A stretch of DNA of 31,554 nucleotides from UHGV virus genome UHGV-0071094, one strand, 5' to 3'. Under the pieces are notes generated by a model. That model ran no database searches and was not told the DNA's origin. It was given only the letters and a program-made list of their open reading frames with translations. The DNA is from a virus. This document shows, one piece after another, positions 2,358-25,521 of this stretch. Position numbers and translations under genes: made by a program. Position 1 is the stretch's first letter; each line of letters opens with the position of its first letter.

Positions 2358-2517
2358 ATAAATTTTTCAATGCCAGAGACGTTTGCCAGTTCATGCAGAA
2401 AATCGCTTTTGTAAGTTACAGTCCATGTATCTTGGTTTAGAACAAAGTGGTGTCAAAAAAGGTTTATGCCTTGGGAGGGAATAAGGGGCTGGGAAATTTA
2501 ACCCCTTATAGAGTTGT

Positions 2518-2738
2518 TATGCCGCAATAGCTTTAAATTTTTGAGCAATGACATAATCACTCCACCACTGCATGAGAACCATTCGTTCTGCGAGATACTC
2601 GGCACGATTATAGGCTGCAATTATTTAATCTTTCTTCGAGTGGGCAAGGGCCGCTTCTAAGACACCAGTCCTGAACTTACCAGATTCCTCTGTCGCTGTT
2701 CTCGCAATAGATCTCATTCTGTTAACCATAAGTTCACC
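2518..2738 (-). pseudogene. Remnant of a tyrosine integrase 3' end (last ~65 codons, internal TAA)
   Basis: Minus-strand translation gives ...SGKFRTGVLEAALAHSKKD*IIAAYNRAEYLAERMVLMQWWSDYVIAQKFKAIAA*, matching the C-terminal motif of P4-type integrases (compare int at 12083..13345). About 85% identical over ~170 bp to 6490..6660. Confidence 0.55.
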
Positions 2739-2856
2739 TCCTTAAACCGTTCGAATAATTACGGCTTATACTGCCTACTTATGCTAATATCTAAGAGAAG
2801 CCATTGTGGTTGTGTAAGTATACTTCTTGGTTTATTTCGACTATAGAAAACCATAC

Positions 2857-3753
2857 CTATGACTGGCTGTTTTCAGCAAGAGTCTTATCATCTAAAGAAT
2901 TTATTTTCGAAATTCTTTTTAACTCATTAAGATAATCAACCTCGTTTTCCAAGAACCAATGAAGAACTTTAGAGTTACCAAGTAATTTATTAATATATGA
3001 CTGTATTATAACGAATTTCAACATATCTGAGCCATACTCGGTTTGAAGCTTTTTTGTTTCTTCCGAAGTTGTTGCCATTTCTTGTTCCAGACGAAGTATG
3101 GTTTTTTTTATGTCCTTTTTATAGGGAGTGTTTTTCCCTTTATTTACTATCATTGATGCCGGTGTTGCATCCAAGATGCTCATTGCAAATTTTTTACTAT
3201 AATTATCAAAATTAATCATTGTACCGACTGCTTCAATTTGACGAATTGGTTTCATTTTCCTCAAAACATCAAATGTAGCCTTAGGTATAGGTTTATCAGA
3301 AAGTTTCGCAATCACACTTGGATCTATACCGTTCATTACATTAGCTTTATCTTTTATGGCATCAACAGATATGCCCAAAGCAGCACTAAGTTTTTCAATT
3401 GATACTTTTGCCAGAGACTTAATTATCATTCTATGTTCTTCAACTACATTTATATGATTCACTTGTTTGTTAGGAGTGAACGCATCATCTATGCTCGAAA
3501 GTATACATGGAGCTTTTTCTATGCCTAAATCTTTTAAAGCCTCAACCCGCAAATGGCCATCGAGTATCTTAATGGCATCTTTATCTTTGTCATAGAACAC
3601 TATTATTGGTTCAATAATACCTAAGCTTTCAATTGAGGTAACTATCTGATGATATTTATGACTTAGCTTTACATTTTCTAACAATTCCTTAGAGGGAATT
3701 AACTTGTTAGTTTCTAAATAAATAAAATTGTCGCCAAAACGTATCTGAATCAT
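2857..3753 (-). CDS. ParB/Srx-superfamily (ParB N-terminal domain-like) protein
   Basis: 298-aa ORF with ILDGHLRVEALKDLG motif typical of the ParB N-terminal nuclease-like domain; start overlaps the stop of the upstream gene by 4 nt. Confidence 0.6.
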   Translation of the reverse strand: MIQIRFGDNFIYLETNKLIPSKELLENVKLSHKYHQIVTSIESLGIIEPIIVFYDKDKDAIKILDGHLRVEALKDLGIEKAPCILSSIDDAFTPNKQVNHINVVEEHRMIIKSLAKVSIEKLSAALGISVDAIKDKANVMNGIDPSVIAKLSDKPIPKATFDVLRKMKPIRQIEAVGTMINFDNYSKKFAMSILDATPASMIVNKGKNTPYKKDIKKTILRLEQEMATTSEETKKLQTEYGSDMLKFVIIQSYINKLLGNSKVLHWFLENEVDYLNELKRISKINSLDDKTLAENSQS

Positions 3754-4646
3754 TTTGATGCCTCTTTGTTTATTGGATTGAGGATCTGAGATGGCAGTTC
3801 TGATAGATTCTCTTGTTCAAGTATATTTTGAAAGCTTTTATTCATCATTATGACGTTAAAAATCTCATTTACTATCAGCAAGTTAGTTTTAATAAATTTA
3901 GAGTTGTTATAAACAGATTTATGTTCAGCGATACTATTTTCATAAAGCTCAATTAACTCCTCAGCAGTCATTCTTTTTGATGGTTTGTGATAATAAAACC
4001 CGGCTGCTTTTGCACCTTTATTCCCAATTGTTCGCTGATTTAGAATGTGTTTTATCTTTATAATGTCCCGGCTTTTTATTAATTTTTTATCATATGCTTC
4101 GGTAAGAATATCTTGTGCTTCTTCAGTGTCACATCTTGCAAATTGTACTGCGAGATACAGAGGCAAATTCCCCCGTTCGACTGCAGAGAGAAGTTTATGC
4201 TCTCCCTTATCAAGAAGCATATTTATACTGCTCACCCAGTTCGATGAATACCCAGTAATCTCACTTATTTCGGAGTCTGAAAGTCCTCTGTTTTTCATAT
4301 CTTTTATTATCTGTAATAACTCATTGGAACGTGGTCTCCTCCTTGCAATGTTTTCAACCAAACTCATAACATAAGCATCTTCTTCTGATACATCTCTTAT
4401 AATTGCTGGAATAATGGTTTCACCTAATGCAACGAGCGCCTCTATTCTCCCTTGGCCACAAATTAAAGCATATTTGAAGTCGTCTTCATCAATCGCTCTT
4501 ACGCTTATAGGCTTGCTTAACCCTCTTTTTTTTATGCTTTCCTTAATTTCTTCATGCACTACCTTATTTCTAGTTCGCGGGTTAAGAAATTTTATTTTGG
4601 CAATTTCAATTTGGATTATTGGGAATTCATTTGATTCAGGCAGCAT
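3750..4646 (-). CDS. ParB/RepB-like protein (ParB N-terminal domain)
   Basis: 298-aa ORF; GQGRIEALVALG and VENIARRRPR motifs resemble ParB box regions; overlaps the upstream recombinase gene by 11 nt. Confidence 0.6.
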   Translation of the reverse strand: MLPESNEFPIIQIEIAKIKFLNPRTRNKVVHEEIKESIKKRGLSKPISVRAIDEDDFKYALICGQGRIEALVALGETIIPAIIRDVSEEDAYVMSLVENIARRRPRSNELLQIIKDMKNRGLSDSEISEITGYSSNWVSSINMLLDKGEHKLLSAVERGNLPLYLAVQFARCDTEEAQDILTEAYDKKLIKSRDIIKIKHILNQRTIGNKGAKAAGFYYHKPSKRMTAEELIELYENSIAEHKSVYNNSKFIKTNLLIVNEIFNVIMMNKSFQNILEQENLSELPSQILNPINKEASK

Positions 4647-6192
4647 ATAGTTCCCTCACTTTCATGCGAGTAATAATTTGTAGAAGTTTATCCAGATTAT
4701 CAAATCTATAGAGATCTAATCGAATGTTGTTTGTTTCCGTCATCCACATTTTACTATATTCGTTTTCAATCTTTGGTATGATATAAAAATCAAGTGGTGA
4801 AATATTTTGTGAATCCATTCGTATAACAATTGTTATGTCTGCTTTCTGTGAGTTATCAAACCGGACTTTCCATCTGAGTTTACCCGATTTCATATGTGTG
4901 CATTTAGTAATAAGGACGGAAATTAAAAACTCATCATTGATGTAAAGCATTGGTGCATATTTATATTCGTCTATATAGCAGTTGCTTTTTAAAATTTCCC
5001 CCTTAAAATCCTCAATTATGCCTGAGTAAAATGATCTTAGTGCTTCATTTATTTGGATATAGCTGTAATCATGTTCTGGCTTATAACCAATCAAAGTATA
5101 TGCTCTTAAAAGACCACCAAATCGGGTTCTGTAAACAGAAGATGAAGGGCCTGTATCATCTTCATCAATGATAAAGCCAGATAGTTTTCCATTAGATTCT
5201 AATTTTTGTTTTAGCTTTTCTAAAAGCTCTTCATTAGTCAAATGTACGGATCGGAGCTGAATTATTTCTTGAGCTTTATTATATTTTTTCTTTGAAATAA
5301 TGGGTTTATATGCCTTGTCGCATCTAACCCATTCATTTTTTGGGTTTTTTACAAGCCTACTTTTTAGTTTAGATGAGGTTTTGTTATATATGTTATTTCC
5401 AATATATTTTTCATTTGTCAAGATTTGATGTATTTTTGCACGAGTCCATAGTGTTCCATTTTCTGCAGGTATATTCTGTTCATTTAGTCTCTCAGCAATA
5501 ATGAATTCTGGCATGTTATCATCTATAAAGAGATCATAGATGCTATTTACAATTTTTATCTCATTTTTTGGTCCCGGAATTAATATCACCCTATCTGTTT
5601 GAATACTCTTTCTTTTGCGGAAGCCCAATATTTCTTTAGCTATGCCATTTTCATCTACTAAAAGACGTCTTAGCCCATAACCAGCCATTCCGCCTTGATG
5701 ATAACCAAGCTTTATTAAATTTGCTTGCCCTATAAATACCTTTTCTGATAAATTCCTGCTGTGATATGCAGCACTAGATCTTTTTATATTCAGTATAACA
5801 GAAGACTCTAAAGGGAAATCTTTAGTGGGAATAGGTTCGGAACAGTATATAAGATCTACACCGTTTCTCTCAAATAGAAAGGAATAATATGCAGCTTCAT
5901 CACTATTTTGAAAACGACCAAAACGGCTCACATCATAAAATAATACAGCCTGTATATCTATTTTCTTTTGTTCTACATCACTAAGTAACTGCTGCAAAGA
6001 ATGCCGGCCTATGATACTGACTCCGCTCTTACCTGCATCATCGTAGGTATAAGCGATTTCCATATTGTTCTTTTCAGCATAATCTTTGATATATTCGGAC
6101 TGATTATGTAAAGAATATTGCTGATGGTCGGTAGACATCCGCAAGTACTGTGCGACCCTAACTTTATGATTTTTATCATTTTCGCTAGCCAT
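4636..6192 (-). CDS. Large serine recombinase (resolvase N-terminal catalytic domain plus recombinase domain)
   Basis: 518-aa ORF; N-terminal VAQYLRMSTDHQ motif with catalytic Ser as in the resolvase/invertase domain; size and C-terminal extension typical of large serine recombinases. Confidence 0.8.
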   Translation of the reverse strand: MASENDKNHKVRVAQYLRMSTDHQQYSLHNQSEYIKDYAEKNNMEIAYTYDDAGKSGVSIIGRHSLQQLLSDVEQKKIDIQAVLFYDVSRFGRFQNSDEAAYYSFLFERNGVDLIYCSEPIPTKDFPLESSVILNIKRSSAAYHSRNLSEKVFIGQANLIKLGYHQGGMAGYGLRRLLVDENGIAKEILGFRKRKSIQTDRVILIPGPKNEIKIVNSIYDLFIDDNMPEFIIAERLNEQNIPAENGTLWTRAKIHQILTNEKYIGNNIYNKTSSKLKSRLVKNPKNEWVRCDKAYKPIISKKKYNKAQEIIQLRSVHLTNEELLEKLKQKLESNGKLSGFIIDEDDTGPSSSVYRTRFGGLLRAYTLIGYKPEHDYSYIQINEALRSFYSGIIEDFKGEILKSNCYIDEYKYAPMLYINDEFLISVLITKCTHMKSGKLRWKVRFDNSQKADITIVIRMDSQNISPLDFYIIPKIENEYSKMWMTETNNIRLDLYRFDNLDKLLQIITRMKVRELYAA

Positions 6193-6489
6193 GCACGAAA
6201 CCTCATGGATGATTCAATACAATGTAGATGATAAAATTGATCAATTTCTAACCAATTTCAACTGTTTTATCATTGATTAGAGCGAATTTAGTAAATCTTC
6301 GAGGTGTATGATAATCGAGAAGATATGTGAATTATGTAGCTGATATGACCAACAGCTTTCGGTATGTGGCCTCAAGTTACCCATCCGTAAATGGCTATGC
6401 TTAGTCAACATTTGTTAATATGTGTGATTATAATTCTTTAACTAAATCAAGATAGTTAACCCATCAGGGGAGAGTTATGCGGCAATAAC

Positions 6490-6955
6490 TTAGCATTTTT
6501 GAGACGCAACATAGTCACTCCACCATTGCATGAGAACCACCCGTTCTGTGGGATATTCTGCACGATTGTAGGCTGCAATTATTTCATCTTTCTTCGAGTG
6601 GGTAAGGGCGGCTTCGAAGACATCAGTCCTAAACTTTCCAGACTCATCAGCAGCATCGCATACCGTGAGCTACAAGCTTACCTCCGAACCCCATACGGAT
6701 TATGGCCGCATTAGCTGTTTGCTCATGCATATGGTTAAGAGGAGCCTTTATGCTTGGAAACACCCATTCACGATGCCCACTTATCACTTTCATTGACTCT
6801 AGGACTCGTAAAGCTTCTTTGCTTAGTGGAACTTTGTGAGGCTTCTTCATTTTCATAAACTCAGCCGGGATGTTCCACATACCAGTTTCTATATCAATAT
6901 CTGTCCATCTTGTGCGAACCGCTTCAGCGGGCGAACCCATGTTAGAAGTTGCCAC
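6490..6955 (-). pseudogene. Truncated, frameshifted tyrosine integrase (C-terminal catalytic half only)
   Basis: ORF 6647..6955 encodes an integrase catalytic-domain segment (WTDIDIETGMWNIPAEF...HREWVFPS...AHGMR). The C-terminal ...DESGKFRTDVFEAALTHSKKDEIIAAYNRAEYPTERVVLMQWWSDYVASQKC* continues in another frame (about 14-nt deletion relative to the copy at 2518..2738). The N-terminal ~220 codons are absent. Confidence 0.7.
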
Positions 6956-7377
6956 TCAATCAGTAGCCTTGTTTCTAACCGGATAGAAGCATTGTTTAGA
7001 GCAACTAGGAAGCGGGGGGATTACTGTTTCTGGTAAAGACTCTTTTGGTGGTGAACTGGACGCCTGGAATCAATATGAGAAAACTACTTAGTGCAACAGG
7101 AGCTGAATTAACTAATGGTGTAACATTACCTAGTGGTTGGCTTGTCAGTGGTATGAGCAAGGGAGCCAATAATCCTGAAAATTTAAGAGCGTTTGCTGTT
7201 TGTATGAGACAATGGCAGCATAAAAATTCTAGGATAAACTTTTGCCTTAATTAAAATGATAGGTGGTATATTTATAGGGGTTATCTTAGGAAGAATATTT
7301 TTAATGCTATTGATGAGAAGTATCGGACATGATTTAATGTTGTTTATGTTTTAGAATTCTCATATTCAGGCGGTTTC

Positions 7378-8436: not shown

Positions 8437-8539
8437 TGATTCGGAATCATTTCTACCGTTGGCTGGGGTACATAAAAGCGTAATATTTTTATTCATTCTG
8501 ATAAAGCCAAGTCACATGGCTTGGCTTCAGATATATTGA

Positions 8540-8872
8540 TTAAGTATTATCTTTAATCGTTGTTGTTGTTCCGTTGGTTTTCACGGAAGCGATACCTTTT
8601 TCACGGGATTGTTTGGTCGAGTACATCTGGCTTGTACCGATCACATGATGATTAGCCGCCCGTAGGTTAAAATAGGACTTGCCGTTAGATGAGTCTTTCA
8701 GATCGTAGCGTTCATCAAGTGGGCTGTTTGCCTGAACTGATATAATGCCATTTTCTGCAGAACTCTTGGTTGTGTAAAGCTCGCTGGTGAGGATAATTTC
8801 TCCATTACCGGCTTTCAGAACAAATTTATACTGTTCATTACTGCTCTTATCCAATTCGAACCAACCAGCCAT
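8540..8872 (-). CDS. DUF1508 (YegP-like) tandem-repeat protein
   Basis: 110-aa ORF with two internal repeats (...YKFVLKAGNGEIILTSELYTTKSSAENGIISVQ / ...YFNLRAANHHVIGTSQMYSTKQSREKGIASVK) characteristic of the DUF1508/UPF0339 family. Confidence 0.65.
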   Translation of the reverse strand: MAGWFELDKSSNEQYKFVLKAGNGEIILTSELYTTKSSAENGIISVQANSPLDERYDLKDSSNGKSYFNLRAANHHVIGTSQMYSTKQSREKGIASVKTNGTTTTIKDNT

Positions 8873-9650
8873 ATTAACTCCTTGATAAAGTTGTGATTTT
8901 TACGGCCCAGTGATGAAGAACGAAGCGGGCAAGTTCAGTATGCCTGAAACAAAAATTGTTTCCAATATGTTATGTTTGTATCGGTAGCTGGGAACAAGAC
9001 TACACACTACGAAATGAGGCTTAGCTGTCGCCCACCAGTGTTGGCAGGTATGCCTTAGTGGGAGTCTTAGAGCGGAGGGTATCTTGAATCAATGTCTATT
9101 GCCATATTTACACGACACACGATATATTTTCTTTAGAGTCATATCTTAGGAAACAATAACGGCGACTTGAGCAAAAGTATCTAATATCAATAGATTTTCG
9201 TTAATTTAAAAAAATAGGTGCTCTCTCATAAAATCTGTAGGGTACTTGGTCGTGAATAAATTGCTGAGTTCATGTTGCGATGTCATTATTTGTCATCTTC
9301 CATGTCTCATAATTATCCTAACGTATAGGTTCAATGAAATTCCTTTATTCCTGTGTCTAATCTAATCAATCTAGCAATCTAACCAAACCTGTGTGTGGCG
9401 ATTTTACCTTGTTTAAATGTTCTAGGAATGCCTTTATCTTTTAGTATTAATTATATTAAAGGTTTACTTTCACGATGAGTATTTGCTGTTTCATCGGGAG
9501 GTTAAGATATTCATAATCTATCCTGACTGTAACGAAGATTAATCATTGATTTTATTTATATGTGAAAAAATCACTTTAAATATTGATTTTTTATGATTTA
9601 TGTAGTTTAATTTAAATGTATAGGTGATTTTTTCACATTGGAGAGGTGCT

Positions 9651-11009
9651 ATGTTAATCAGATTCTCAGTCGAAAACTACAAGTCATTCAGAGATAGAGT
9701 CGAGTTTTCAATGGTTTCGAGTAAAGTTCGAAGCCATCCATCACATGTCGTTAAGGCAACTTCTGCGAACGATATAAGTGTGTTAAAAGTTGGAGTTATC
9801 TATGGAGCTAATGCTTCTGGTAAATCCAACATCATCAAAGCAATGAAACATGCTCAAAATATGATTTTGAAAGGAAGTAAAGCTGGTACTAACCTTCCCT
9901 ATGCACCTTTCAGGCTTGATGATGATTTTGAAAAGAAACCCAGCAGATTTGAATTTGAAATTAAAATCAATGGCAAGAACTATGCATATGGATTCTCAGC
10001 TGATCAAAAATCCATTAAAGAAGAGTGGTTGTATGAAATAAACAAGAAGGATGACATTCTTATTTATGAAAGAAGTAATACAACTCACTTTAAATTTGAA
10101 AACATAAAATTTAAAAATGAAGAAGACGAACAATTCCTAAACTTTACAGCAAGAGGAACAAGCGAAAACTCTTTGTTTTTGTACGAATGTTTTGATAGGA
10201 ATGTTCTGAAGGATTTGAATTACATTGTACCAATTTCTGATGTTTTTAAATGGTTTAAAGCTAAGTTACAAATAGTTTTCCCGAATTCTAAATATAGAGA
10301 CCTAGATTTTGGATCTGCTTCTGATGAAAAAGAAGGAGAGCTTATAACTGATATTCTAAAAGATTTTGATACCGGTGTGTCAAAGTTAGTATTAAGAAAA
10401 GTTAGTTCATTTGATGATATAAAACTTCCTCCCAATTTCAAGGACCAGATCATAGAGGATCTTAAATCTAGTAAGGCTGTTGTAATTTCAGGGCCAAGAA
10501 ATAAACGATATAAAGTTGAACTGGGTGAAGATGGAGAAATAACGGTATTTCAATTGATGACGGCCCATAAAGATAAAAATGGTGATGATGTATATTTTGA
10601 ACTCAACCAGGAATCAGATGGTACACAAAGACTTTTTGATATTATACCTGGATTAGTCGAACTTATGTTGAAAGACAAAGTTTATATAATTGATGAAATT
10701 GATCGTAGTTTGCATCCAAAGATTACAAAAACATTTATGAAATTATTCTCTATGAAAACTGTCGGTAAAGACAGTCAACTGATAGTCACCACTCATGAAA
10801 CCGGTCTTTTAGATTTTGAACTTATACGAAGAGATGAGGTTTGGTTTACTGAAAAAAATAAAAGTGGAATTTCGAGAATTTATTCACTCGAAGAATTCCA
10901 GCCTAGGTTTGATAAAGATATACGTAAAGGTTACTTAGTGGGGCGTTTTGGTGGAATTCCTAAAATAAAGAATATATTATCAAACGTTGAAGATTTTCAG
11001 AAGGACTAA
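9651..11009 (+). CDS. ABC/SMC-like AAA ATPase (OLD/AbiLi-like ATPase component)
   Basis: Walker A GANASGKSN; Walker B-like VYIIDEIDRSLH; GGAGAGG RBS before the ATG at 9651 (ORF track start 9624 is less likely); stop 2 bp before the next gene. Confidence 0.7.
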   Translation: MLIRFSVENYKSFRDRVEFSMVSSKVRSHPSHVVKATSANDISVLKVGVIYGANASGKSNIIKAMKHAQNMILKGSKAGTNLPYAPFRLDDDFEKKPSRFEFEIKINGKNYAYGFSADQKSIKEEWLYEINKKDDILIYERSNTTHFKFENIKFKNEEDEQFLNFTARGTSENSLFLYECFDRNVLKDLNYIVPISDVFKWFKAKLQIVFPNSKYRDLDFGSASDEKEGELITDILKDFDTGVSKLVLRKVSSFDDIKLPPNFKDQIIEDLKSSKAVVISGPRNKRYKVELGEDGEITVFQLMTAHKDKNGDDVYFELNQESDGTQRLFDIIPGLVELMLKDKVYIIDEIDRSLHPKITKTFMKLFSMKTVGKDSQLIVTTHETGLLDFELIRRDEVWFTEKNKSGISRIYSLEEFQPRFDKDIRKGYLVGRFGGIPKIKNILSNVEDFQKD

Positions 11010-11011
11010 AA

Positions 11012-11668
11012 ATGCCTCGTGAAAGAAGAGAGTTTGACAGAAGAAGTGGGGTAAAAGACCCGTCTTTAATTGTAATTGCTTGTGAAGGAGAGAAAACAGA
11101 GCAGGACTATTTCAATAGTATATCGGAACTATGTGATGAGTTAGGATCACGTTTACAACTTAAAGTTCTCCCGCCGCGAGAAGAGGGGCATAGTGCGCCT
11201 AGACATGTTTTAGACCAAATGGATAAATATAAAAAAGAATTTGGAATTAAAGTGAATGATGAATTATGTCTGGTAATCGATAGGGATAAACAATCATGGA
11301 CAGAGGCTACTATAAGTGAAGTTGCTCAGTTTTGTCATGCCAAACAATATATTCTGGCTTTAAGTAATCCATGTTTTGAATTATGGCTTCTTATACACCA
11401 TTATGATGTAATGCTCCTCGGTGAGGATGAAAAAAGAAGTATTTTAAGAAATAAAAATGGGTATATGAAAAGCAAACTACGGGATGTTATTGGACAATAT
11501 AACCCAAGTTCTATTAATATTCATGATTTCTGGGGGGTAACTGAAATCGCGATTGACAGAGCTAAACGTTTAGATGTTAATCCAGCTGAGAGATGGCCTA
11601 ATGAAATAGGAAGTCGTGTGTATATAATCATGGAGAAAATACGTCAGTCAATTAATAATCAATTATAA
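11012..11668 (+). CDS. RloB-like / Toprim-domain protein (putative nuclease partner of the ATPase)
   Basis: 218-aa ORF; N-terminal IVIACEGEKTE and downstream LVIDRDKQ give a Toprim-like E...DxD signature; translationally coupled to the ATPase gene. Confidence 0.6.
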   Translation: MPRERREFDRRSGVKDPSLIVIACEGEKTEQDYFNSISELCDELGSRLQLKVLPPREEGHSAPRHVLDQMDKYKKEFGIKVNDELCLVIDRDKQSWTEATISEVAQFCHAKQYILALSNPCFELWLLIHHYDVMLLGEDEKRSILRNKNGYMKSKLRDVIGQYNPSSINIHDFWGVTEIAIDRAKRLDVNPAERWPNEIGSRVYIIMEKIRQSINNQL

Positions 11669-12082: not shown

Positions 12083-13345
12083 CTAATTCATTTTCTTTAT
12101 TCTCTGGGCGAATTCAAACGGTGTAATGTGTTCTTTTCTGTTGGCATTAAGGTAGTCAGCCCACCATTGTAACATGAGTTTTCTCTCTTCGAGATGTTCC
12201 GCTTTGTGGATATATGCTGCCCGAACCGAGTTACGCTCTTGGTGGCTCATTTGACGTTCTACGGCGTCTCTTGACCATAACCCAGATTCGATTAATGCAC
12301 TACAAGCCATAGTTCGAAAACCGTGACCACAAACTTCAGCTTTCGTGTCGTAACCCATGGTGCGAAGAGCCTTGTTAACAGTGTTTTCGCTGATTGGTTT
12401 GTCATCGCGACTAAAACCAATGAACATAAGATCCTTTTCTCCACTTATAGCTTGGAGCCTTTTAAATAATACTACAGCCTGCTTACTTAGCGGCACAAGA
12501 TGAGGGGTTTTCATTTTTGAGCCCCTATTTGAATACTTAACCCCCTCCAATTCTCGTCTTTCTGCAGGGATTGTCCATAAGGAGTTTTTGAAATTCACCT
12601 CAGACCAACGAGCGAATCTAAGTTCACTTGAACGGATGAAAGTCAGTAGAGTTAATTGAACTGCTATTTGAGTGATACCTTTCCCTTTATAGGCATCAAT
12701 CCGTTTGAGAAGCTCAGGAAGTCGTTCGAGGGGAAGGGCAGGGCGGTGATTACTCTTGGCAGTGGTTACAGCGCCTGCGAGGTCGTAAGCTGGGTTTTGG
12801 TCAATCAAAGCATTGTGAACAGCATACCGCATGATGGCAGTGATTCTTTGTTGTAAACGGGCAGCAAGTTCAAGATGTCCAGTTTCCTCTGCTTTTTTCA
12901 GAGGAACAAGTAAATCACGAGTTTTAAGCTCACTAATGTTCCGCTTACCGATAACAGGAAATACATGAGTGATCAGGCTGTTTAATACGGTAGTTCTGTG
13001 ACTGTCTGACCAGGTTCTGTTGCTTGAGTGCCAGTCTCTGGCAACAGTTTCAAAAATGAGTAAGCCTTTCTCTTCAATCTTTTCTGTTTTTCGCTTTTCG
13101 CCAGGGTCAACATTGTTGGCAATGAGTTGCCTTGCTTCTTCTCTTCTACGACGAGCTTCTGCTAAAGACACTTCGGGATAAACACCAAGCGCCAACATTT
13201 TTTGCTTACCAGAAAAGCGATATTGAAGCCGCCAGTATTTTGAACCCGTAGGGTGAACCAGGAGATGCATACCATCCCCATCTGTTAACTTGACGGGCTT
13301 TTCAGTAGGTTTCGCATTTCTGACTTTTACCTCAGTTAGTGCCAT
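12083..13345 (-). CDS. P4/CP4-57-type tyrosine integrase (Arm-DNA-binding DUF4102 plus catalytic domain)
   Basis: 420-aa ORF; N-terminus MALTEVKVRNAKP...KLTDGDGMHLLV...GSKYWRLQYRF typical of the P4-like integrase arm-binding domain; C-terminal HGFRTMA...AAY...LMLQWWADYL catalytic motifs. Sits at the AT-rich/GC-normal boundary. Confidence 0.9.
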   Translation of the reverse strand: MALTEVKVRNAKPTEKPVKLTDGDGMHLLVHPTGSKYWRLQYRFSGKQKMLALGVYPEVSLAEARRRREEARQLIANNVDPGEKRKTEKIEEKGLLIFETVARDWHSSNRTWSDSHRTTVLNSLITHVFPVIGKRNISELKTRDLLVPLKKAEETGHLELAARLQQRITAIMRYAVHNALIDQNPAYDLAGAVTTAKSNHRPALPLERLPELLKRIDAYKGKGITQIAVQLTLLTFIRSSELRFARWSEVNFKNSLWTIPAERRELEGVKYSNRGSKMKTPHLVPLSKQAVVLFKRLQAISGEKDLMFIGFSRDDKPISENTVNKALRTMGYDTKAEVCGHGFRTMACSALIESGLWSRDAVERQMSHQERNSVRAAYIHKAEHLEERKLMLQWWADYLNANRKEHITPFEFAQRIKKMN

Positions 13346-14035: not shown

Positions 14036-14222
14036 TTATCATCTCCATAAAACAAAACTCGCCGTAGCGAGTTCAGATAAAAGAAATCCCCGCGAATGCG
14101 AGGATTGTTAGTTGCGCTCTGCTGCTGCCTTAGCCATTACCATATCCACCAAACTTCACCAGACATGATTCTCGCAATCACTATCATCACCAAAGTGATA
14201 ATCACAACTTTAACTGGCGGCA

Positions 14223-14951
14223 TCATTCACCATCCTGCTGCGGTGCTGCTGGCAGTGGCATCCAGTGGGTAATACTACCTGGATATAAACTCTTTGCTGG
14301 CCCCCAGTAGCCATCTGTATTAACACGCATAACCTCACAGCCATCAAAACCATCAGTTACAAGAACGTATTCATAAGGTTCCGGCATCCTTTCGCTTACC
14401 GGAATCCAACTATCCGGAGTTCCCGGAGAGTTGCCATTTACATCGAAGTTTGGCTCTGCGTCCTGAACCAGGAGGATGTAACCATTCTTGGCTGTATCAA
14501 GTTCTAACGCCTCGGTGACGGTGCCGAAATAGCGATTGCCTAAATCAGCATCACAAGTGCTTACATCAATGGAAACTTCCATGCCCTCGATTAATTCTGG
14601 CAAGTTGTAAGTTTGGCTTACAGGTTCGGCTTCCAGTTCTGCTATGCGCTTTTTTGCTGCTTCCAGCTCGCCAAGCAGCGCCAAGACGGTAGCCGGATTG
14701 GCTGCGGCGATGAATTCAGCATTGGCCTGCTGTTCCATTTGGAAATCTTCATCGAAACCGCTTTCAGGATGCGCTCCTTCAATTCTGCAAATGGGAATAT
14801 ATCCAGCAGCCTCGCGATGAATTAGCGCATCATCACAATCAAATCGGCTCTCTCCATATTCGAGCGACCACTCACCACACGTTGCTTTTTCTGCCGCTTC
14901 ACGCAGTGCCTGGTAATTAATTTCGCTCACTGTTTGCCTCCTTTGCGCCAC
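14223..14951 (-). CDS. Ead/Ea22-like protein with C-terminal DUF551 domain
   Basis: 242-aa ORF; C-terminal ...[35 protein letters not shown]...THWMPLP resembles DUF551; typical lambdoid early-left accessory gene. Confidence 0.7.
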
Positions 14952-15550
14952 ATCGCATTCAGATATTTGTTGTCATTAACAGAACCGAAACTCTTTCTTT
15001 TAAGCAATTCCTCTCTCGATGGCATTGGCTTTACGCGTTGGCGAATAATCATTTCTGCCGGAAGAATGCCGGGATTGTATGCAAGTCCTCTCATGGTAAA
15101 TTCCTCAGTCATTACTGATAGCGCCATAGCGTGAGCGGTAATTACGCAGGCGCGGGTCAATTTCAGGGAAGTGGGTATATCTGCATCTTTCGCATCATCA
15201 ATGCCGAACAAACCATTGAGGCAATACTTGCGTGCATAAGAGCTTGTAGCTCCAGTAACTTGTGCAGAATCCATTCCTTTCTTGCTTTCTTCCTCTCGTG
15301 CAAGAGCGGTTGCCGTATGACTGTTTTCGCCATCGGTAATAGTTGCCGTGGCTTTCACATAATACCGATCACCAATCAACACAACTTCATCGCTGATTGA
15401 TAAAAACAGGCCATTCAGTAGCGGCTTAACGCCTTCAAGAATATCTTCGCAGCTTCTGTATTTATATTTACCGAATGAGTTGTACTGATTTTTTGGCGCG
15501 TTCAGATTCTCCTGAATGGCAGCCAGTCTTGCGTAAAATTCTTTGCTCAT
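14927..15550 (-). CDS. erf: ERF-family single-strand annealing protein (P22 Erf-like)
   Basis: Translation from the internal Met ([45 protein letters not shown]...) closely resembles phage P22 Erf as I recall it; the ORF-track start 15580 probably over-extends. Confidence 0.8.
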
Positions 15551-15651
15551 ATGATTGTTCTCAGAATGGACATGGCCCAAGGAAATAACGCTGATTTAAT
15601 ACTTCGACTCGGGACAAGTTAAGGCATACCCGCATTCCTTCGCGGTCACCA

Positions 15652-15810
15652 TTATGGCGATACCAGAGAGCTTTCTGCGTGTACATGCGTCTCTGTAACT
15701 TGCTCTCCTTCACTGTGGTTGCAAGTGACATGAATATCTCCTTCGTTACCGATTAATTCTTTCATCTGACGAATGAATTCTTCGTCTGACCAGTTATCTG
15801 TAAAACTCAT
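15652..15810 (-). CDS. Small phage protein (52 aa) in the Arf/early-left position
   Basis: Minus-strand ORF MSFTDNWSDEEFIRQMKELIGNEGDIHVTCNHSEGEQVTETHVHAESSLVSP; its ATG overlaps the stop of the upstream small gene (ATGA). Confidence 0.4.
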   Translation of the reverse strand: MSFTDNWSDEEFIRQMKELIGNEGDIHVTCNHSEGEQVTETHVHAESSLVSP

Positions 15811-15959
15811 TTCCTGCGATACCATGGAAGGTTGATAGCTAATTTCATCTCTTTATTTGCTTCAAGCCACATTTTGGAATCACCAATAAATCTGGCTATT
15901 ACTGCTTTGTTTTGTGCTGCTCGAAGCATCTGGTGATTGATGGCTATTTCATTGCGCAT
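15807..15959 (-). CDS. Kil-like small protein (50 aa)
   Basis: Minus-strand ORF MRNEIAINHQMLRAAQNKAVIARFIGDSKMWLEANKEMKLAINLPWYRRK; the ...RFIGDSKMW... segment resembles lambdoid Kil as recalled; assignment tentative. Confidence 0.35.
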   Translation of the reverse strand: MRNEIAINHQMLRAAQNKAVIARFIGDSKMWLEANKEMKLAINLPWYRRK

Positions 15960-16078
15960 AACGCCTCCAGTTGTTTCTTTGCTGCTCTGATTAATTGTTT
16001 AACTCGGCGTGATAATTCAGATTCGTGCGGGTAGAAAGCGGACATGACGCCGCTACCCGCGAGCTGAAAGTGCATCAT
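15944..16078 (-). CDS. cIII-like small protein (44 aa)
   Basis: Internal start of ORF 15944..16183 gives MMHFQLAGSGVMSAFYPHESELSRRVKQLIRAAKKQLEALCAMK, resembling lambda CIII (..AG....ESxL.R....L); AAGGAG RBS upstream. Confidence 0.4.
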   Translation of the reverse strand: MMHFQLAGSGVMSAFYPHESELSRRVKQLIRAAKKQLEALCAMK

Positions 16079-16619
16079 GGGTAACTCCTTATATTTGATT
16101 GCATAACGAAAACGCCTCGAGTGAAGCGTTATTGGTATGCGGTAAAGCCGATGGAAGAATGGTTTCTTCTCGCAGGTAAGCATGATGCTTGCTGTTCTGG
16201 AATACGGAATCGAAGACGATGAAATGGCTGAATTGACTAAGCGGCTTGCCGATTACCTGACAAAAGAAAAAGCCCCGAAGAACGGCGAATTCTTCGAGGC
16301 CTGATGTAGAAAGACTGGATCAATCCACAGGAGTAATTATGACAAAACGTCGTAAGAAATACCAGGAAAAAGAAGAGATTCGACACCCTGATTCACCTGA
16401 GGGATTAGTGGTAGCCGCAGCAAATAACAGGGCGTTCGCAGAGCGCCTTGTTGGTGTTTACAGACTAGCCAAAGCAGGAGTGAAACATGGGCGTCGTTAA
16501 GTTAGCTGATTACAGGCATATCCAAACCGTATGCCTGTTGGTAGTGGTAACCAGTTGGCGAAGTGGAACGGTTGGAATTACTTCCACCGAAAGGAACCTT
16601 GCGATAACGGGAGCGAATA

Positions 16620-18038
16620 ATGCCGATTCAGCAACTTCCGCTTATGAAAGGTGTCGGCAAAGACTTTCGAAACGCCGACTATATCGACTATCTGCCAGTG
16701 AATATGTTGGCTACACCCAAAGAAATACTCAACAGCAGCGGATATCTTCGTTCATTCCCGGGCATTGCCAAACGCTCTGATGTGAACGGTGCATCTCGCG
16801 GCGTCGAGTACAACATGGCGCAGAATGCTGTTTATCGTGTGTGTGGTGGCAAGCTGTACAAAGGAGAAAGTGAAGTCGGTGACGTTGCCGGAAGTGGTCG
16901 TGTATCAATGGCGCATGGTCGGACATCACAGGCAGTAGGCGTTAATGGTCAACTGGTCGAGTATCGCTATGATGGCACGGTTAAAACCGTCTCAAACTGG
17001 CCTACAGACAGCGGATTCACGCAGTATGAGTTAGGTTCAGTCCGCGACATTACGCGCTTACGTGGGCGTTATGCGTGGTCAAAAGACGGCACTGATTCAT
17101 GGTTTATCACTGACCTTGAAGACGAATCGCATCCTGACCGCTACAGCGCACAATATCGTGCTGAGTCTCAGCCTGACGGCATCATCGGCATCGGAACATG
17201 GCGAGACTTCATCGTCTGCTTTGGTTCATCGACGATTGAATATTTCTCCCTGACTGGCGCAACAACTGTTGGTGCTGCTTTGTATGTCGCACAGCCATCA
17301 CTGATGGTGCAGAAAGGCATTGCCGGAACTTACTGCAAAACGCCATTCGCTGATTCGTATGCGTTTATCAGCAATCCGGCAACGGGTGCGCCGTCTGTAT
17401 ACATCATCGGATCCGGTCAGGTGTCACCAATCGCCAGCGCGAGCATTGAGAAAATTCTCCGCTCCTACACTGCTGATGAACTGGCTGATGGTGTGATGGA
17501 GTCTCTGCGATTTGATGCGCATGAGCTGCTGATTATCCATCTTCCGCGCCATGTTCTGGTGTACGACGCATCTTCAAGCGCCAATGGTCCGCAATGGTGT
17601 GTACTGAAAACAGGCCTGTATGACGATGTGTATCGCGCTATCGACTTCATTTACGAAGGCAATCAGATAACGTGCGGCGATAAGCTGGAATCCGTGACCG
17701 GGAAATTGCAATTCGATATCAGCAGCCAGTACGACAAGCAACAGGAACATCTGCTGTTTACTCCACTCTTCAAAGCAGATAACGCCAGAGTTTTCGACCT
17801 TGAGGTTGAATCGTCAACTGGCGTTGCGCAGTACGCTGACCGCCTGTTCCTCTCTGCAACCACTGACGGCATCAATTACGGGCGTGAGCAGATGATTGAG
17901 CAGAATGAACCGTTCGTTTACGACAAACGCGTTTTGTGGAAGAAAGTAGGGCGCATCAGGAAAAACATTGGCTTCAAATTGCGCGTTATCACTAAGTCAC
18001 CTGTCACTCTGTCTGGCTGCCAGATAAGGATTGAGTAA
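16620..18038 (+). CDS. P22 gp10-like tail/head-completion protein
   Basis: 472-aa ORF; same length as P22 gp10 and N-terminus [46 protein letters not shown] closely resembles it. Confidence 0.85.
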
Positions 18039-18886
18039 TGGCTGATTCGAATCTTAATGTGCCGGTAATCATTCAGGCTACACGACTCGACACATCAGTC
18101 CTTCCGCGTAATATCTTCTCGCAGTCGTATCTGCTTTACGTTATCGCACAGGGAACTGATGTTGGTAACGTGGCTAACAAAGCCAACGAGGCCGGACAGG
18201 GCGCTTATGATGCACAGGTCAGGAACGATGAGCAGGATGTGATTCTCGCTGACCATGAGCAGCGAATTTCTGCTGCGGAAGCAACGCTTGTTAATCATGA
18301 GGAGCGAATCAGCCAGGCAGAATCAACTCTTCAGGAACATGAAACGCGAATCGCTCAGAATGAAAGCGATATTGCGTCGCTTGATACCAGAGTTCAGTCG
18401 CTGGAATCGCAGGTTTCAGACCATGAATCGCGCATTGATGCTCTGGAGTATGCCACTACTCGCAAGAAGTCAGAGGTTGTTTACTCTGGCGTATCAGTAA
18501 CCATTCCGACAGCGCCGACCAACCTTGTTAGCCTGCTGAAAACGCTCACGCCGTCATCAGGATCGTTGGCACCATTCTTCGACACCGTTAACAACAAGAT
18601 GGTTGTGTTCAACGAGAACAAAACCTTGTTCTTCAAGCTGTCGATCGTCGGGACGTGGCCCAGCGGAACCGCCAACAGGTCAATGCAGCTAACATTTTCC
18701 GGTTCTGTTCCTGACACACTGGTAAGCAGTCGCAACTCGGCGACAACAACCGACAACATCCTGTTAGCTACGTTCTTCAGCGTGGATAAAGACGGCTTTC
18801 TTGCCACAAATGGCAGTACGTTAACCATTCAGTCAAATGGTGCGGCGTTTACTGCCACAACCATCAAGATAATCGCGGAGCAGTGA
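18038..18886 (+). CDS. Tail needle protein (gp26-like) with C-terminal knob, Sf6-type
   Basis: ATG overlaps the gp10 stop (TAATG); N-terminus [36 protein letters not shown] conserved with P22 gp26; heptad-like coiled-coil middle; 282 aa with a ~130-aa C-terminal extension, as in Sf6-type needles. Confidence 0.8.
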
Positions 18887-19341
18887 TGATTCAGTTCAAA
18901 CAAACGCGAAACATCGACCTGATCGAAGCAGTCGGAAATCACCCTGACATTATCGCCGGTAGCAACAACGGTGATGGATACGACTACAAGCCTGAATGCC
19001 GTTACTTTGAGGTTAACGTGCACGGTCAGTTTGGCGGCATTGTTTACTATCAGGAAATTCAGCCGCTTACATTCGATTGCCACGCCATGTACCTGCCAGA
19101 GGTTCGCGGCTTCAGCAAGGAAATCGGGATGGCGTTCTGGCAATACATTCTGACTAACACCACCGTTCAGTGCGTCACATCGTTCGCCGCACGCAAATTC
19201 CGCCACGGGCAGATTTACTGCGCAATGATTGGCCTTAAGCGTGTCGGAACCATCAAGAAATACTTCAAAGGCGTGGATGACGTGACTTTTTACAGCGCCA
19301 CACGCGAAGAACTAATCGACTTCCTGAATCACGGGAGATAG
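18883..19341 (+). CDS. P22 gp14-like virion assembly protein
   Basis: 152-aa ORF in the conserved position between the needle and gp7 genes; overlapping start/stop. Confidence 0.65.
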
Positions 19342-19343
19342 CC

Positions 19344-20036
19344 ATGTTATATGCATTTAAGCTGGGCAGAAAACTGCGCGGCGAGGAACCTTGGTGCCCT
19401 GAAAAAGGCGGGAAAGGTGGTAGCTCTGATAAAAGCGCAAAGTATGCAGCAGAAGCCCAGAAGTATGCCGCAGACCTGCAAAATCAGCAGTGGCAGACGA
19501 TCATGAAAAACCTTGCTCCGTTCACGCCTCTTGCGGAGCAGTATGTTAACCAGCTTCAGAACCTTTCCAGTTTAGAAGGTCAGGGGCAGGCACTTAATCA
19601 GTATTACAACTCTCAGCAGTATAAAGACCTTGCAGGTCAGGCTCGTTACCAGAGTCTTGCTGCTGCGGAGGCTACGGGAGGACTTGGTTCGACAGCCACA
19701 AGCAATCAACTGGCTACGATCGCGCCGACTCTCGGTCAGTCGTGGTTATCAAACCAGATGAGCAATTACAACAATCTGGCAAACGTTGGGCTTGGTGCTC
19801 TGCAAGGTCAGGCAAACGCCGGGCAGACGTACGCCAACAACATGAGCAGCATTGCACAGCAAAGCGCAGCTCTTGCCGCTGCTAATGCCAACAAACCATC
19901 AAGTCTTCAGACAGCAATTAGTGGCGGAACGTCTGGTGCGATTGCCGGTGCAGGTCTTGCCAGCCTTTTGGGAACATCAACACCTTGGGGCGCTGGCATT
20001 GGTGCTGGTATCGGATTGCTTGGCTCGTTGTTTTAA
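19344..20036 (+). CDS. Ejection protein, P22 gp7-like
   Basis: 230-aa ORF, Gln/Ala/Gly-rich with a glycine-rich hydrophobic C-terminus; gene order and size match P22 gene 7. Confidence 0.75.
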   Translation: MLYAFKLGRKLRGEEPWCPEKGGKGGSSDKSAKYAAEAQKYAADLQNQQWQTIMKNLAPFTPLAEQYVNQLQNLSSLEGQGQALNQYYNSQQYKDLAGQARYQSLAAAEATGGLGSTATSNQLATIAPTLGQSWLSNQMSNYNNLANVGLGALQGQANAGQTYANNMSSIAQQSAALAAANANKPSSLQTAISGGTSGAIAGAGLASLLGTSTPWGAGIGAGIGLLGSLF

Positions 20037-20045
20037 GGGGTAATC

Positions 20046-21452
20046 ATGGCTACTTGGCAAGGATCAAATGGCGGATTGTTGGCTGGTATCGGCGGCGTCA
20101 ACTCAAACGCTCCGAGCGTAAATGACATCGGCAACACGCTTCAGCTTATCAGGCAGAACAATGATATTGAGCGTTCAGGCGCTAACAATGTTGGGCTGAC
20201 AGCTTTGCAAGGTCTTTCTGGTATTGCGGGTGTTTTTCAGCAGGAAAAGCAGGCTCAGCGGCAGAAAGAATTTCAGCAGGCATACGCTAATGCTTATGCG
20301 TCTGGTGATCGCGGTGCTTTGCGTCAGTTGGCTACTCAATATCCAGACCAGATTGAATCTGTTCGTAAAGGCATGGGATTCATTGATGAAGACCAGCGCA
20401 ATTCTATCGGCACCTTAGCGGCTGGCGCCCGCCTTGCATCATCGTCTCCAGAAGCAATGCAATCATGGCTGCAAAACAACGCCAAGGAACTGACTCGCGT
20501 CGGTGTTGACCCTAATAACGTTGCTCAGATGTATCAGCAGAACCCTTCAGGATTTGGTGAGTTTGTTGATCACCTTGGAATGGCTGCTCTTGGTCCGATT
20601 GATTACTTCAATGTTCAGGACAAGATGGCTGGTCGTGAGATTGATCGCGGAAAACTTGCAGAGACAATCCGCAGCAATCAGGCTGGAGAAGCACTTCAGG
20701 CGAGAGGGCAAAACCTTTCCTATCAGTCAGCAATGACTGGGCACAATATCGCAGCACAACGCTTGGCTCTGGATCAGCAAGAGTTCGGGTTTAAGATGCA
20801 GCAAGCGCAGGAAAAGGCTCAGCAGTTGATTAGCGAAGCACCTAAGCTGTCAGTAAACATGGAAAAAGGCATCGAGACGGCTGTAAACAATGCTACAGCA
20901 TCATCAAACTCAGCCAATTCTATGAGTGCGCTTGCTCAACAGTTCAGAGCAGAAAAACCAACGACAGGTTTGTTCGGTAACGCACAGAACATGTTCGCAA
21001 AACTTACCGGAAGCGATACAACATTGCGTGATTTGCGCATCCGCCAAAATGCCCTTGTTAACAGTCAGGTTCTTAAATTCCTACCTCCAGGCCCCGCAAC
21101 GGATAAAGACGTTGAGATCGTTCGGCAGGGGGCACCAACTGACATGGATAACCCTGAGACGGTCGCAAGATGGCTTGATGCAATGGCAAACCTTGAGCGA
21201 CGAAACGCGCAGTTTAATGAGTTTAAAGCCGAGTGGATGAGCGCGAATGGCAATCCAGGACAATCGCGTAATGGCGGTCAGATATTGGGGTTGGATGTTA
21301 AAAAAGGTGAATCATTGGGGAGTGCCGTTAAGCGGTATATGTCAATGAATACTGACGCAGCGCCAGCACAAGATTCGACACCTTCAGGAGAACCACGGAA
21401 TCAGGTTGGATCATATACCTCAAAATCAGGCATTCAATTTACGGTGGAATGA
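20046..21452 (+). CDS. Ejection protein, P22 gp20-like
   Basis: 468-aa ORF in conserved synteny (7-20-16); compositional similarity to P22 gp20. Confidence 0.75.
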
Positions 21453-23290: not shown

Positions 23291-23314
23291 CGTATGGGGA
23301 ATTGGATTCAATCG

Positions 23315-23704
23315 TTAACATTTTCTTTTTACTTTTCCAACAAAAGCTTTGGTTGAATCCATATTCCCATAACCAGAAATGGTTTTCGACATTAAAACTG
23401 TTCCATTAGGATGTATTACCCATGAGTCGATAACTCGTTGAGTTTCGCCATTCGCGCCGATTCCAATGATGGAGTTTTTAGACAATGCTTTGTAAGCCAT
23501 GCCGCCCGCATCCGTCCCAGAATATGTGATACTGGCATCTTCACCGTTTGTCTTAATGATGAATGTTCCACTAAAACCATCTTCTTCCGGTTGAAAATTA
23601 TTTCGTTCTGAATAGCTTATTCCGTGCATATCTCCAACGACCCAGCACTCTGCTGAGACAGAAAACGAGAAGACAAGGAAAGCCATTGCTATAATCAATT
23701 TCAT
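23315..23704 (-). CDS. Hypothetical secreted protein (129 aa), moron in the sieA position
   Basis: N-terminal signal peptide MKLIIAMAFLVFSFSVSA; no recognised domain; same strand as and downstream of mnt. Confidence 0.55.
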   Translation of the reverse strand: MKLIIAMAFLVFSFSVSAECWVVGDMHGISYSERNNFQPEEDGFSGTFIIKTNGEDASITYSGTDAGGMAYKALSKNSIIGIGANGETQRVIDSWVIHPNGTVLMSKTISGYGNMDSTKAFVGKVKRKC

Positions 23705-23719
23705 TTTAAGCCCTTATTG

Positions 23720-24055
23720 TTATTGATTCTTTTTGCACGGAAATGTTTTTCCTACTGCTAGGGCGGTTAGTATAACTGCACTCTCATTTCTTGATTCTGG
23801 GTTTTTGTTTAGATATTTCTCAACGATATCGGTGTATTGATACATGTCAACGCCATCAGGAGGACATAGAGAACCAATTAGTATCAATGAGTCAGTTACT
23901 CCGCGCAAATATCCAGTAATGTAAAGCGATGAAAAATCATCACCCTTTTTACCTTGTTGAATGTTGTAAAGAAGGTCATTACCCGTTTGAAGCTCGCGCA
24001 GCTCAGCACTGGAAGAAGAGACAACTGCTAACAAGAACAGTGATAGAAATCTCAT
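23720..24055 (-). CDS. Hypothetical secreted protein (111 aa), moron co-transcribed with mnt
   Basis: Signal peptide MRFLSLFLLAVVSSSSA; two Cys (possible disulfide); start overlaps the mnt stop. Confidence 0.55.
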   Translation of the reverse strand: MRFLSLFLLAVVSSSSAELRELQTGNDLLYNIQQGKKGDDFSSLYITGYLRGVTDSLILIGSLCPPDGVDMYQYTDIVEKYLNKNPESRNESAVILTALAVGKTFPCKKNQ

Positions 24056-24306: not shown

Positions 24307-24328
24307 GCCATCACTCCAAGTTAGTGTA

Positions 24329-24380: not shown

Positions 24381-24396
24381 ATATTGTGAGGTGAAC

Positions 24397-25505: not shown

Positions 25506-25521
25506 CAGATAACCAACGCAA

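Follow-up and report, generated by a model that had tools for sequence, protein, structure and literature searches.

The subject of this report is a three-gene operon on the minus strand of the virus genome UHGV-0071094, a stretch of 31,554 nucleotides that is referred to here as the window. The operon occupies positions 2857-6192 and encodes a large serine recombinase followed by two ParB/RepB-type proteins, which are called SR, ParB1 and ParB2 and, collectively, the trio. SR (4636-6192) has 518 amino acids, and ParB1 (3750-4646) and ParB2 (2857-3753) have 298 amino acids each; all three genes lie on the minus strand and begin with ATG. The list of open reading frames (ORFs) thus agrees with the initial annotation, which had described three overlapping minus-strand genes here. 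The stop of SR overlaps the start of ParB1 by 11 nt, and the stop of ParB1 overlaps the start of ParB2 by 4 nt. Between the alleles of the window and those of Escherichia coli BL21(DE3), the ratio of nonsynonymous to synonymous substitution rates (dN/dS) is 0.11 for SR, 0.07 for ParB1 and 0.05 for ParB2, and the genes are therefore intact, working and under strong purifying selection. The best explanation of this arrangement is a single, translationally coupled cassette. The domain assignments first proposed, a serine recombinase with two ParB-type proteins, are supported by a Pfam profile search, and the two ParB proteins are indeed distinct from one another, sharing 32% identity over just 63 amino acids (E 2e-4).

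SR combines a Resolvase domain (residues 14-157, 5e-22) with a Recombinase domain (residues 210-312, 5.4e-22), and its conservation spans the whole length of the protein, including a family-specific C-terminal part (approximately residues 320-518). Across the diverse family members that were aligned, SR keeps the catalytic motifs R-x-S and D-x-x-R-x-x-R, with R18, S20, D87, R90 and R93 invariant. Profile matches in the PDB are to SprA (including its recombinase domain), the TP901-1 integrase and TnpX. When an AlphaFold2 (AF2) model of SR was compared with known structures by Foldseek, the best matches were the full-length integrases SprA and Bxb1, the SprA alignment covering up to 486 columns with 16% identity. 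Towards the C-terminus, the model is composed of helices (301-402) and a beta-rich region (407-497), predicted with low confidence, and the fold is not reliable there. Since the catalytic serine and arginines are invariant and full-length serine integrases give the best structural matches, SR is apparently a catalytically active, integrase-like enzyme, as judged from its sequence. JGI labels the protein a Pin-like DNA invertase, a name that goes back to no more than a COG label.

ParB1 consists of a ParB N-terminal domain, a helix-turn-helix (HTH) and a RepB-type C-terminal domain (Pfam ParB_N 1.6e-13, RepB 2e-09). ParB2 has a divergent ParB N-domain, an HTH and a strong RepB C-terminal domain (RepB 2.3e-24, and ParB_N at 8e-06, exactly at the curated cut-off). 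ParB1 also exceeds the cut-off of TIGR00180, the generic model of the ParB/RepB/Spo0J domain, with 64.6 bits. No specific NCBIfam equivalog is reached by any member of the trio: CcrB, which is the best NCBIfam match of SR, and RepB and Noc are all far below their cut-offs, and TIGR03454, the model for RepB of repABC plasmids, gives 38 bits against a cut-off of 201. Profile matches of ParB1 in the PDB are to Spo0J, Noc, ParB and KorB over residues 21-163 (down to 1e-18), and those of ParB2 are to Noc and ParB (down to 1e-11); both proteins align with Spo0J, Noc and KorB across the N-domain plus the HTH. In the alignment, ParB1 keeps NPRxR, an invariant GQGR (the GxxR of box II) and ENxARR (E98-N99-x-x-R102, the ENxxR of box III). 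ParB2 keeps DGHxR, which is DGHLR in the window, and is missing the EN box. The predicted nucleotide-binding motifs of the ParB clamps that act as cytidine triphosphatases (CTPases) are hence present in ParB1 and partial in ParB2. The ParB2 family has 112, 502 and 1208 representatives, counted as 50%-identity clusters, at E-values of at most 1e-30, 1e-10 and 1e-3, respectively.

The trio is found well beyond the Enterobacteriaceae. In Xenorhabdus the genes occur in the same order, with identities of 58-59% for SR, 46-48% for ParB1 and 53-54% for ParB2, and are located either near tRNA-Leu and an integrase remnant or elsewhere. At lower identity (SR 42-46%, ParB1 31-39%, ParB2 33-37%), the same order is found on plasmids and on a 7.5-kb viral contig from the human gut, the hosts including Agrobacterium, Piscinibacter, Paraburkholderia and Sphingobium. 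In every annotated plasmid context inspected, namely pAtC58, a plasmid of Piscinibacter, one of 30 kb from Paraburkholderia and pMSHV of Sphingobium, a recombinase is followed by two proteins with RepB C-terminal domains, and the genes overlap or abut. A scan of IMG/VR yielded 79 loci, and the complete, ordered trio was present in all 55 of those for which at least 2.5 kb upstream of ParB2 had been fetched. Of 41 metagenome loci that extend at least 3.6 kb upstream, 40 likewise have it in the same order, and four further metagenomic or isolate contexts agree with this order. Sinorhizobium matches to ParB2 (such as locus L031) were rejected as members, for SR and ParB1 are missing there and the genes are solitary and RepB-like. 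The co-occurrence of the three genes is far beyond chance, and the trio is an ancient unit that extends across the Alpha-, Beta- and Gammaproteobacteria, carried by genomic islands, plasmids, prophages and one Tni transposon. The question of whether the three genes are conserved as a unit, left to comparative genomics by the initial annotation, is in this way answered positively.

Within E. coli, the 4.2-kb trio region is found in 671 of 5426 complete genomes (approximately 12%), always on the chromosome. Identity to the window is at least 99% in 43 of these, 95-99% in 27, 90-95% in 595 and 80-90% in 6. BL21(DE3) is among the carriers. In the examples inspected, one of which belongs to the 90-95% class, the usual order is ssrA (encoding tmRNA), an intact P4-type integrase of 409 amino acids, SR, ParB1, ParB2 and then variable cargo. 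This cargo is IS1 followed by glaH in BL21(DE3), and elsewhere a type I restriction system, a set of TIGR04141, Hxs and relaxase genes, or a patatin-like phospholipase with a DEAD-box helicase and a relaxase. The position of the enterobacterial trio is fixed: it comes immediately after the P4-type integrase, at the end nearest ssrA in a family of mobilizable islands with defence genes as cargo. The ssrA-integrase-trio arrangement also occurs in Enterobacter, Leclercia, Kluyvera and Phytobacter, and SR proteins that are 99-100% identical are found in Klebsiella, Enterobacter, Cronobacter and Salmonella. When enterobacterial loci are compared in pairs, homology typically begins approximately 1.7-1.8 kb upstream of SR, taking in the integrase and its att side, and ends 3-51 nt past ParB2; some pairs share more. 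The conserved backbone of the island is therefore att-int-SR-ParB1-ParB2. Between variants, homology stops 3-57 nt from the ParB2 stop; in the window the conserved 3' tail of the cassette is found at 2806-2856 on the minus strand, and homology to island variants stops here, approximately 48-51 nt past the ParB2 stop. Enterobacterial 'proviruses' in IMG/VR (L042-L066) often include the island integrase and the trio, ending 3 nt past ParB2. An analysis of Stx2l prophages names this 'parB' as the site of insertion (PMC9227347). Both observations are due to prophages that are stacked in tandem with the ssrA island, and prophage borders at such loci are therefore easily mis-assigned.

Both ParB proteins are named RepB/ParB partition proteins by Pfam and NCBI, and the initial annotation had held out the alternative of a canonical partition ParB with adjacent parA and parS, in which case the trio would be the remnant of an integrated plasmid with decayed partition genes. 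This reading is already contradicted, and we give it hardly any credence. No ParA-type ATPase is annotated or called beside the trio in the window or in the contexts inspected, none is found among the top neighbour families, and parA, repA, repC or another replication gene adjoins the trio in no inspected context. The region has no nucleotide match in 72,556 plasmids and is never found on an E. coli plasmid. As a possible parS repeat, the window offers the single leader palindrome described below, with no further copy. Moreover, the genes are intact, with the low dN/dS values given above, and the three-gene order is kept across protein identities of 31-59%. A canonical partition locus and a plasmid remnant are excluded because no inspected context has a ParA or Rep partner, the trio is purely chromosomal in E. 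coli, and the genes are intact, under selection and conserved in their order.

Upstream of SR, the leader or promoter region of the operon (6193-6450, minus strand) is conserved across the enterobacterial loci. It harbors a perfect 14-bp palindrome, AAATTGATCAATTT, which contains GATC and lies at 6234-6247, 36-49 nt upstream of the SR start, inside a larger, imperfect inverted repeat (6228-6273). This palindrome is a candidate operator or ParB-binding site, a putative role suggested by its sequence and position; it occurs as a single copy in the window, and one match is no more than chance expects. A scan for promoters and terminators gave nothing above chance. Beyond the leader, on the left flank, is the remnant of a P4-type ssrA integrase (6451-7018, minus strand; Phage_integrase, PRK09692 positions 247-341), which is truncated at its 5' end and frameshifted; in most genomes this gene is intact and adjacent to ssrA. 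On the right flank the 3' end of the integrase gene recurs as a pseudogene (2493-2785, minus strand), corresponding to nucleotides 963-1254 of the gene plus 24 nt. The two flanks form a direct repeat of 198 nt (2493-2690 and 6451-6648) that brackets the trio with 81% identity and a start-to-start distance of 3958 nt. As two copies of the last approximately 290 nt of the integrase gene, it reaches to approximately 2785 and 6740. The right copy is a mosaic, in which the first approximately 110 nt are about 65% identical and contain stop codons, identity rises to about 95% over the next approximately 110 nt, including an exact stretch of 38-50 nt, and is about 85% in the rest. The pattern suggests either a Campbell-type insertion of a 3.96-kb segment together with an integrase 3' end, or the decay of tandem islands with gene conversion. 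The right copy is limited to one enterobacterial subgroup (the window, L003, L007, L009 and L013) and is missing from the BL21 type.

The imperfect inverted repeats of the leader, and the fact that serine recombinases include invertases, might also fit a DNA-inversion switch that confers phase variation on neighbouring cargo, and an invertible-DNA controller was indeed one of the roles first proposed. We regard this as very improbable. The segment 2400-6600 is collinear, in one alignment piece, in the matches listed among 619 E. coli genomes with near-full coverage, and no inverted variants are seen among them. In addition, conserved long-range inverted repeats were found in no lineage, and the known invertases are small serine recombinases that depend upon Fis and an enhancer.

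The surroundings of the trio vary, and no constant partner gene is evident in the inspected contexts or among the neighbour families. Recurring neighbours include Fic/SoFic, AbiEi/AbiEii (DUF6088), HipA, IetAS and other PADLOC families, transposases, TniABQ, and phage tail and lysis genes, to which PD-T4-5, PDC and HEC candidates and methyltransferases may be added; tyrosine integrases account for 5 of 119 upstream neighbour clusters. The same few toxin or abortive-infection genes, AbiEi/AbiEii, Fic/SoFic and HipA, are found beside the trio in unrelated lineages (L017, L027, L079, L094-L104, L105, L019 and L089); in Xenorhabdus as in Agrobacterium pAtC58, for example, AbiE immediately precedes SR. 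Some copies are found by themselves among housekeeping genes: that of L034 fills approximately 4 kb between NADH-dehydrogenase-type genes and tctC, and that of L039 is beside a sugar ABC operon. Such stand-alone copies are in keeping with a unit equipped with a recombinase of its own. Of 54 non-enterobacterial viral contigs, 40 have the SR start within approximately 5.6 kb of a contig end, and in 23 of them the trio is cut by that end. As these are the limits of provirus predictions or of assemblies, they speak for a peripheral position rather than for an att site. On Agrobacterium plasmids, where empty sites were sought, an apparent boundary 40-50 nt past ParB2 proved to be the edge of a mobile Fic gene.

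Two further features accompany the trio outside the Enterobacteriaceae. The first is a small divergent ORF of a single family, located upstream of SR, at a distance of no more than 700 nt, in 62 of 79 non-enterobacterial trios. It encodes 115-150 amino acids with a conserved segment '...ER.VKNW..G..GPSG..L..L', has no Pfam match and is fused to a DeoR-type HTH in Sphingobium. Examples, on the minus strand, are L027:4083-4490, L029:4055-4402, L035:8658-9020 and L034:~8500-8853; the ORF is absent from the window and from Xenorhabdus. The possession of its own small divergent gene by most non-enterobacterial copies points to an autonomous unit. The second feature is an RNA-like element of approximately 115 nt, which starts 10-110 nt past the ParB2 stop in a GC-rich subclade of alphaproteobacterial type (for example L030:7901-8018, L034:12412-12529 and L094:5640-5757). 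It is 86-95% identical between loci whose trio DNA is approximately 65% identical, and is therefore more conserved than the genes themselves. Across 43 distinct copies, RNAalifold gives 30 pairs, 9 of them with compensatory changes, one pair being CG in 23 copies, GC in 12 and UA in 7. With the many G-U pairs on the trio strand, this predicts that the element is structured and lies on that strand. Rfam holds no match to it. It follows ParB2 in 29 of 33 informative copies in IMG/VR and in 90 of 101 in metagenomes. A minority of copies lie at prophage tail-gene ends where the trio is missing; four such prophages share homology with trio-bearing ones that begins exactly at the element and runs into the tail genes. 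A covariance model of the element has no match in the window, and none in the loci of the Enterobacteriaceae, Xenorhabdus, Agrobacterium, Piscinibacter or Paraburkholderia, and the element is therefore a clade-specific addition and not part of the E. coli cassette.

The neighbourhood invites a role in defence, which the initial annotation had also proposed. In this case the trio would act in anti-phage or anti-plasmid defence or exclusion, with the ParB proteins loading on invading DNA and SR breaking or scrambling it. The trio is sporadic and horizontally spread, its proteins sharing 99-100% identity among Escherichia, Klebsiella, Enterobacter, Cronobacter and Salmonella. It is located at variable, defence-rich island and prophage sites, including prophage ends, where accessory genes accumulate; the window contributes DUF6119/Hxs and AbiL, and other loci the SoFic, AbiE, IetAS, PD-T4-5, PDC, HEC and methyltransferase genes listed above. 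The compact operon, often with its own small regulator-like gene, is also in keeping with such a function. However, PADLOC-DB v2 returns no match for SR or ParB1 and a weak one for ParB2, to the ParB-like N-terminal end of a type II methyltransferase model (5.4e-07), and no mention of the trio was found in the defence literature. SR retains a complete and highly conserved integrase-type architecture for sequence-specific DNA binding, and no toxic effector or sensor domain is evident. Recombinases beside defence genes usually serve mobility (PMC13552941), which also weighs against this explanation. The neighbourhood and the sporadic spread are compatible with defence, and we consider a defence role rather unlikely, although it is the main and a serious rival of the reading favoured below.

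A second possibility arises from the plasmids. The trio may be a stabilisation module in which SR resolves multimers or cointegrates of a replicon or of an excised island, with the ParB proteins as accessory or centromere-binding factors, comparable to the resolvase loci of plasmids or to TniR of Tn5053-type transposons. A tblastn search with ParB2 found homologues on 103 plasmids of the Rhizobiales, Burkholderiales and Sphingomonadales, 69 of them conjugative and many of them megaplasmids, and both ParB proteins have the RepB-type C-terminal domain. In Piscinibacter the SR gene directly follows tniQ, the very position at which Tn5053-type elements carry tniR. Yet this adjacency is found in one locus only, and was rejected as evidence for a TniR-like role. 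Furthermore, in E. coli the trio is exclusively chromosomal, some copies are flanked by housekeeping genes, with neither a replicon nor a transposon in evidence around them, and directly repeated res-like sites were not found. Resolvases, too, are normally small serine recombinases and not enzymes of 500 amino acids with a Recombinase domain. Stabilisation is accordingly an explanation that we hold to be decidedly unlikely.

The reading that we favour, tentatively and somewhat short of calling it probable, is that the trio is a self-contained, site-specific recombination module that serves the mobility or maintenance of mobile elements, in which the ParB1-ParB2 pair marks or licenses a site. 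It is favoured because of the full architecture of a sequence-specific recombinase, the minimal stand-alone insertions, the sharp borders, the divergent gene that the unit often has of its own and the position at the edges of mobile elements. The repeat of 198-290 nt from the integrase 3' end around the trio in the window is as expected after the insertion of a 3.96-kb segment. Mechanistically, ParB1, with its CTPase-type motifs, and the degenerate ParB2 would form a heterodimeric ParB-type DNA clamp. This clamp would bind a specific site on the element, for which the leader palindrome is the candidate, and would recruit or license SR or set its direction. SR in turn would cut and rejoin DNA so as to integrate, excise or otherwise rearrange the cassette or its carrier element. 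A more specific version, in which ParB1-ParB2 is a nucleotide-switched clamp that targets or licenses SR, joined by a dedicated RNA-like element in one GC-rich subclade and with either mobility or attack on foreign DNA as the output, is conceivable but on balance doubtful.

Several observations count against a self-contained recombination module. An empty site, with the integrase 3' end joined to the downstream flank and no trio, was found in 0 of 5426 E. coli genomes, and there is therefore no sign of independent movement in this species. Recurrent assembly contigs of 3980 bp with a 22-nt terminal overlap were considered as excised circles and rejected; they are caused by the 38-nt exact repeat in the two integrase 3' copies at k=31. 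Among 12 diverse loci, neither terminal inverted repeats nor flanking direct repeats were found, save the integrase-3' repeat of the one enterobacterial subgroup, and no att site of the kind suggested by the initial annotation was found. The trio is often beside another mobility module, be it the P4-type integrase, two tyrosine recombinases or TniABQ, and is therefore probably not the primary integrase there. SR has no Pfam match to Zn_ribbon_recom and its alignment no conserved Cys4 zinc ribbon, the sole invariant cysteines being C117 and C431. The AF2 model, built from 16 sequences, is of moderate confidence, with a predicted local distance difference test score (pLDDT) of 63.6. A precedent for a ParB protein that controls a serine recombinase was not found in the literature, and a neighbourhood rich in defence and toxin-antitoxin genes fits the defence explanation equally well. 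Of the integration/excision module that was first envisaged, what stands is its compatibility with the stand-alone copies; movement of the trio by itself in E. coli and att-like repeats do not appear.

The window is E. coli DNA and is itself composite around the trio. A low-GC island extends over approximately 0.75-12 kb, and the genes follow in the order of an HxsA-like protein with His-Xaa-Ser repeats (18-731), a TIGR04141/DUF6119 'sporadically distributed' protein (750-2357), the C-terminal integrase fragment, the trio, the 5'-truncated integrase fragment, three small genes, an AbiLi/AbiLii pair and a P4-type integrase (12083-13345). The AbiLi (AAA_21 ATPase, 3e-91) and AbiLii/RloB pair (9624-11668), beside which this integrase lies, is a known type of abortive-infection module. 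Related strains have the full hxsDBCA cluster and a relaxase further upstream, and Hxs and DUF6119 belong to the cargo of this island family. The island adjoins tRNA-Arg and yfdC in a strain with a 100% match to 2400-6600. The arrangement of the window, in which integrase homology ends at 7018 and argW-island DNA follows, is found in 42 genomes; here, the end of an ssrA island has recombined into an argW island and the integrase has decayed. Beyond the island integrase is a prophage (14200-31554) with tail and injection-type proteins, such that mobile elements are stacked at one site. Its genes include a tailspike-like protein (25606-27567), a three-gene, gtr-like cluster of O-antigen glucosylation type (27577-30193, as judged from the translations) and an integrase (30347-31540).

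Serine integrases are tools of genome engineering and the ParB CTPases are a young field, and here a natural, conserved operon couples both. If the ParB pair steers SR, this would be a new principle for the control of site-specific recombination and possibly a new tool; if the trio is a defence system, it would represent a new type of effector. Either reading is directly testable in BL21(DE3). The cassette is present in Klebsiella, Enterobacter, Salmonella and Cronobacter as well as in E. coli, and ssrA islands with defence cargo have it as their backbone. Searches of the literature by composition, NCBI product names and WP accessions found no functional study of the trio, and the sole direct mention is of the 'parB' gene as a landmark of prophage insertion (PMC9227347). 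A serine-recombinase module with a ParB-type accessory pair is undescribed in the literature searched, as the initial annotation had surmised in knowing of no characterised system with these three genes.

Individually, the components have well-known relatives. The large serine integrases, such as SprA/SprB of SPbeta, Int/gp47 of Bxb1 and Int/gp3 of phiC31, share with SR the catalytic serine and Recombinase domains and provide its best sequence and fold matches. Where they work with a directionality factor, the resemblance extends to the one or two co-encoded accessory proteins that are expected to control the reaction. However, SR is without the zinc-ribbon match or Cys4 motif, its C-terminal 200 amino acids are family-specific, no attP or attB site was found for the trio, and the accessory proteins are two ParB-type DNA-binding proteins of 298 amino acids rather than a small recombinase-binding factor. 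The ParB CTPase clamps (Spo0J/ParB, Noc and KorB) have the same succession of an N-terminal ParB domain and an HTH, and ParB1 keeps their GxxR and ENxxR motifs. Unlike these systems, the trio has no ParA or KorA, and comprises two dissimilar tandem paralogues tied to a recombinase, of which ParB2 is without the EN box. With RepB of repABC plasmids both ParB proteins share the Pfam RepB C-terminal domain and homologues that are frequent in the Rhizobiales, whereas repA and repC do not accompany the trio, TIGR03454 is far below its cut-off and the E. coli copies are chromosomal.

A large serine recombinase also needs co-encoded partners to move or excise a chromosomal element in two other systems, CcrA/CcrB of SCCmec and XisF/XisH/XisI of Anabaena. 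The best NCBIfam match of SR, far below threshold, is to CcrB. CcrA is a second recombinase and XisH and XisI are small non-ParB proteins, and to our knowledge neither system has a ParB fold. The integration module of the Dehalococcoides ssrA islands, DsiB/DsiA/RecF/ParBc/Mom (PMC3146451), does encode both a large serine recombinase resembling CcrB and a ParB-domain protein, at that end of the island which is nearest the tmRNA gene. It differs in its six genes, a second small recombinase, a single ParBc of 210 amino acids and an embedded tRNA-like locus (PMC3146451). Its serine recombinase is the ssrA integrase itself (PMC3146451), whereas the trio is separated from ssrA by a tyrosine integrase of the P4 type. 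This Dehalococcoides module is the nearest described analogue of the trio.

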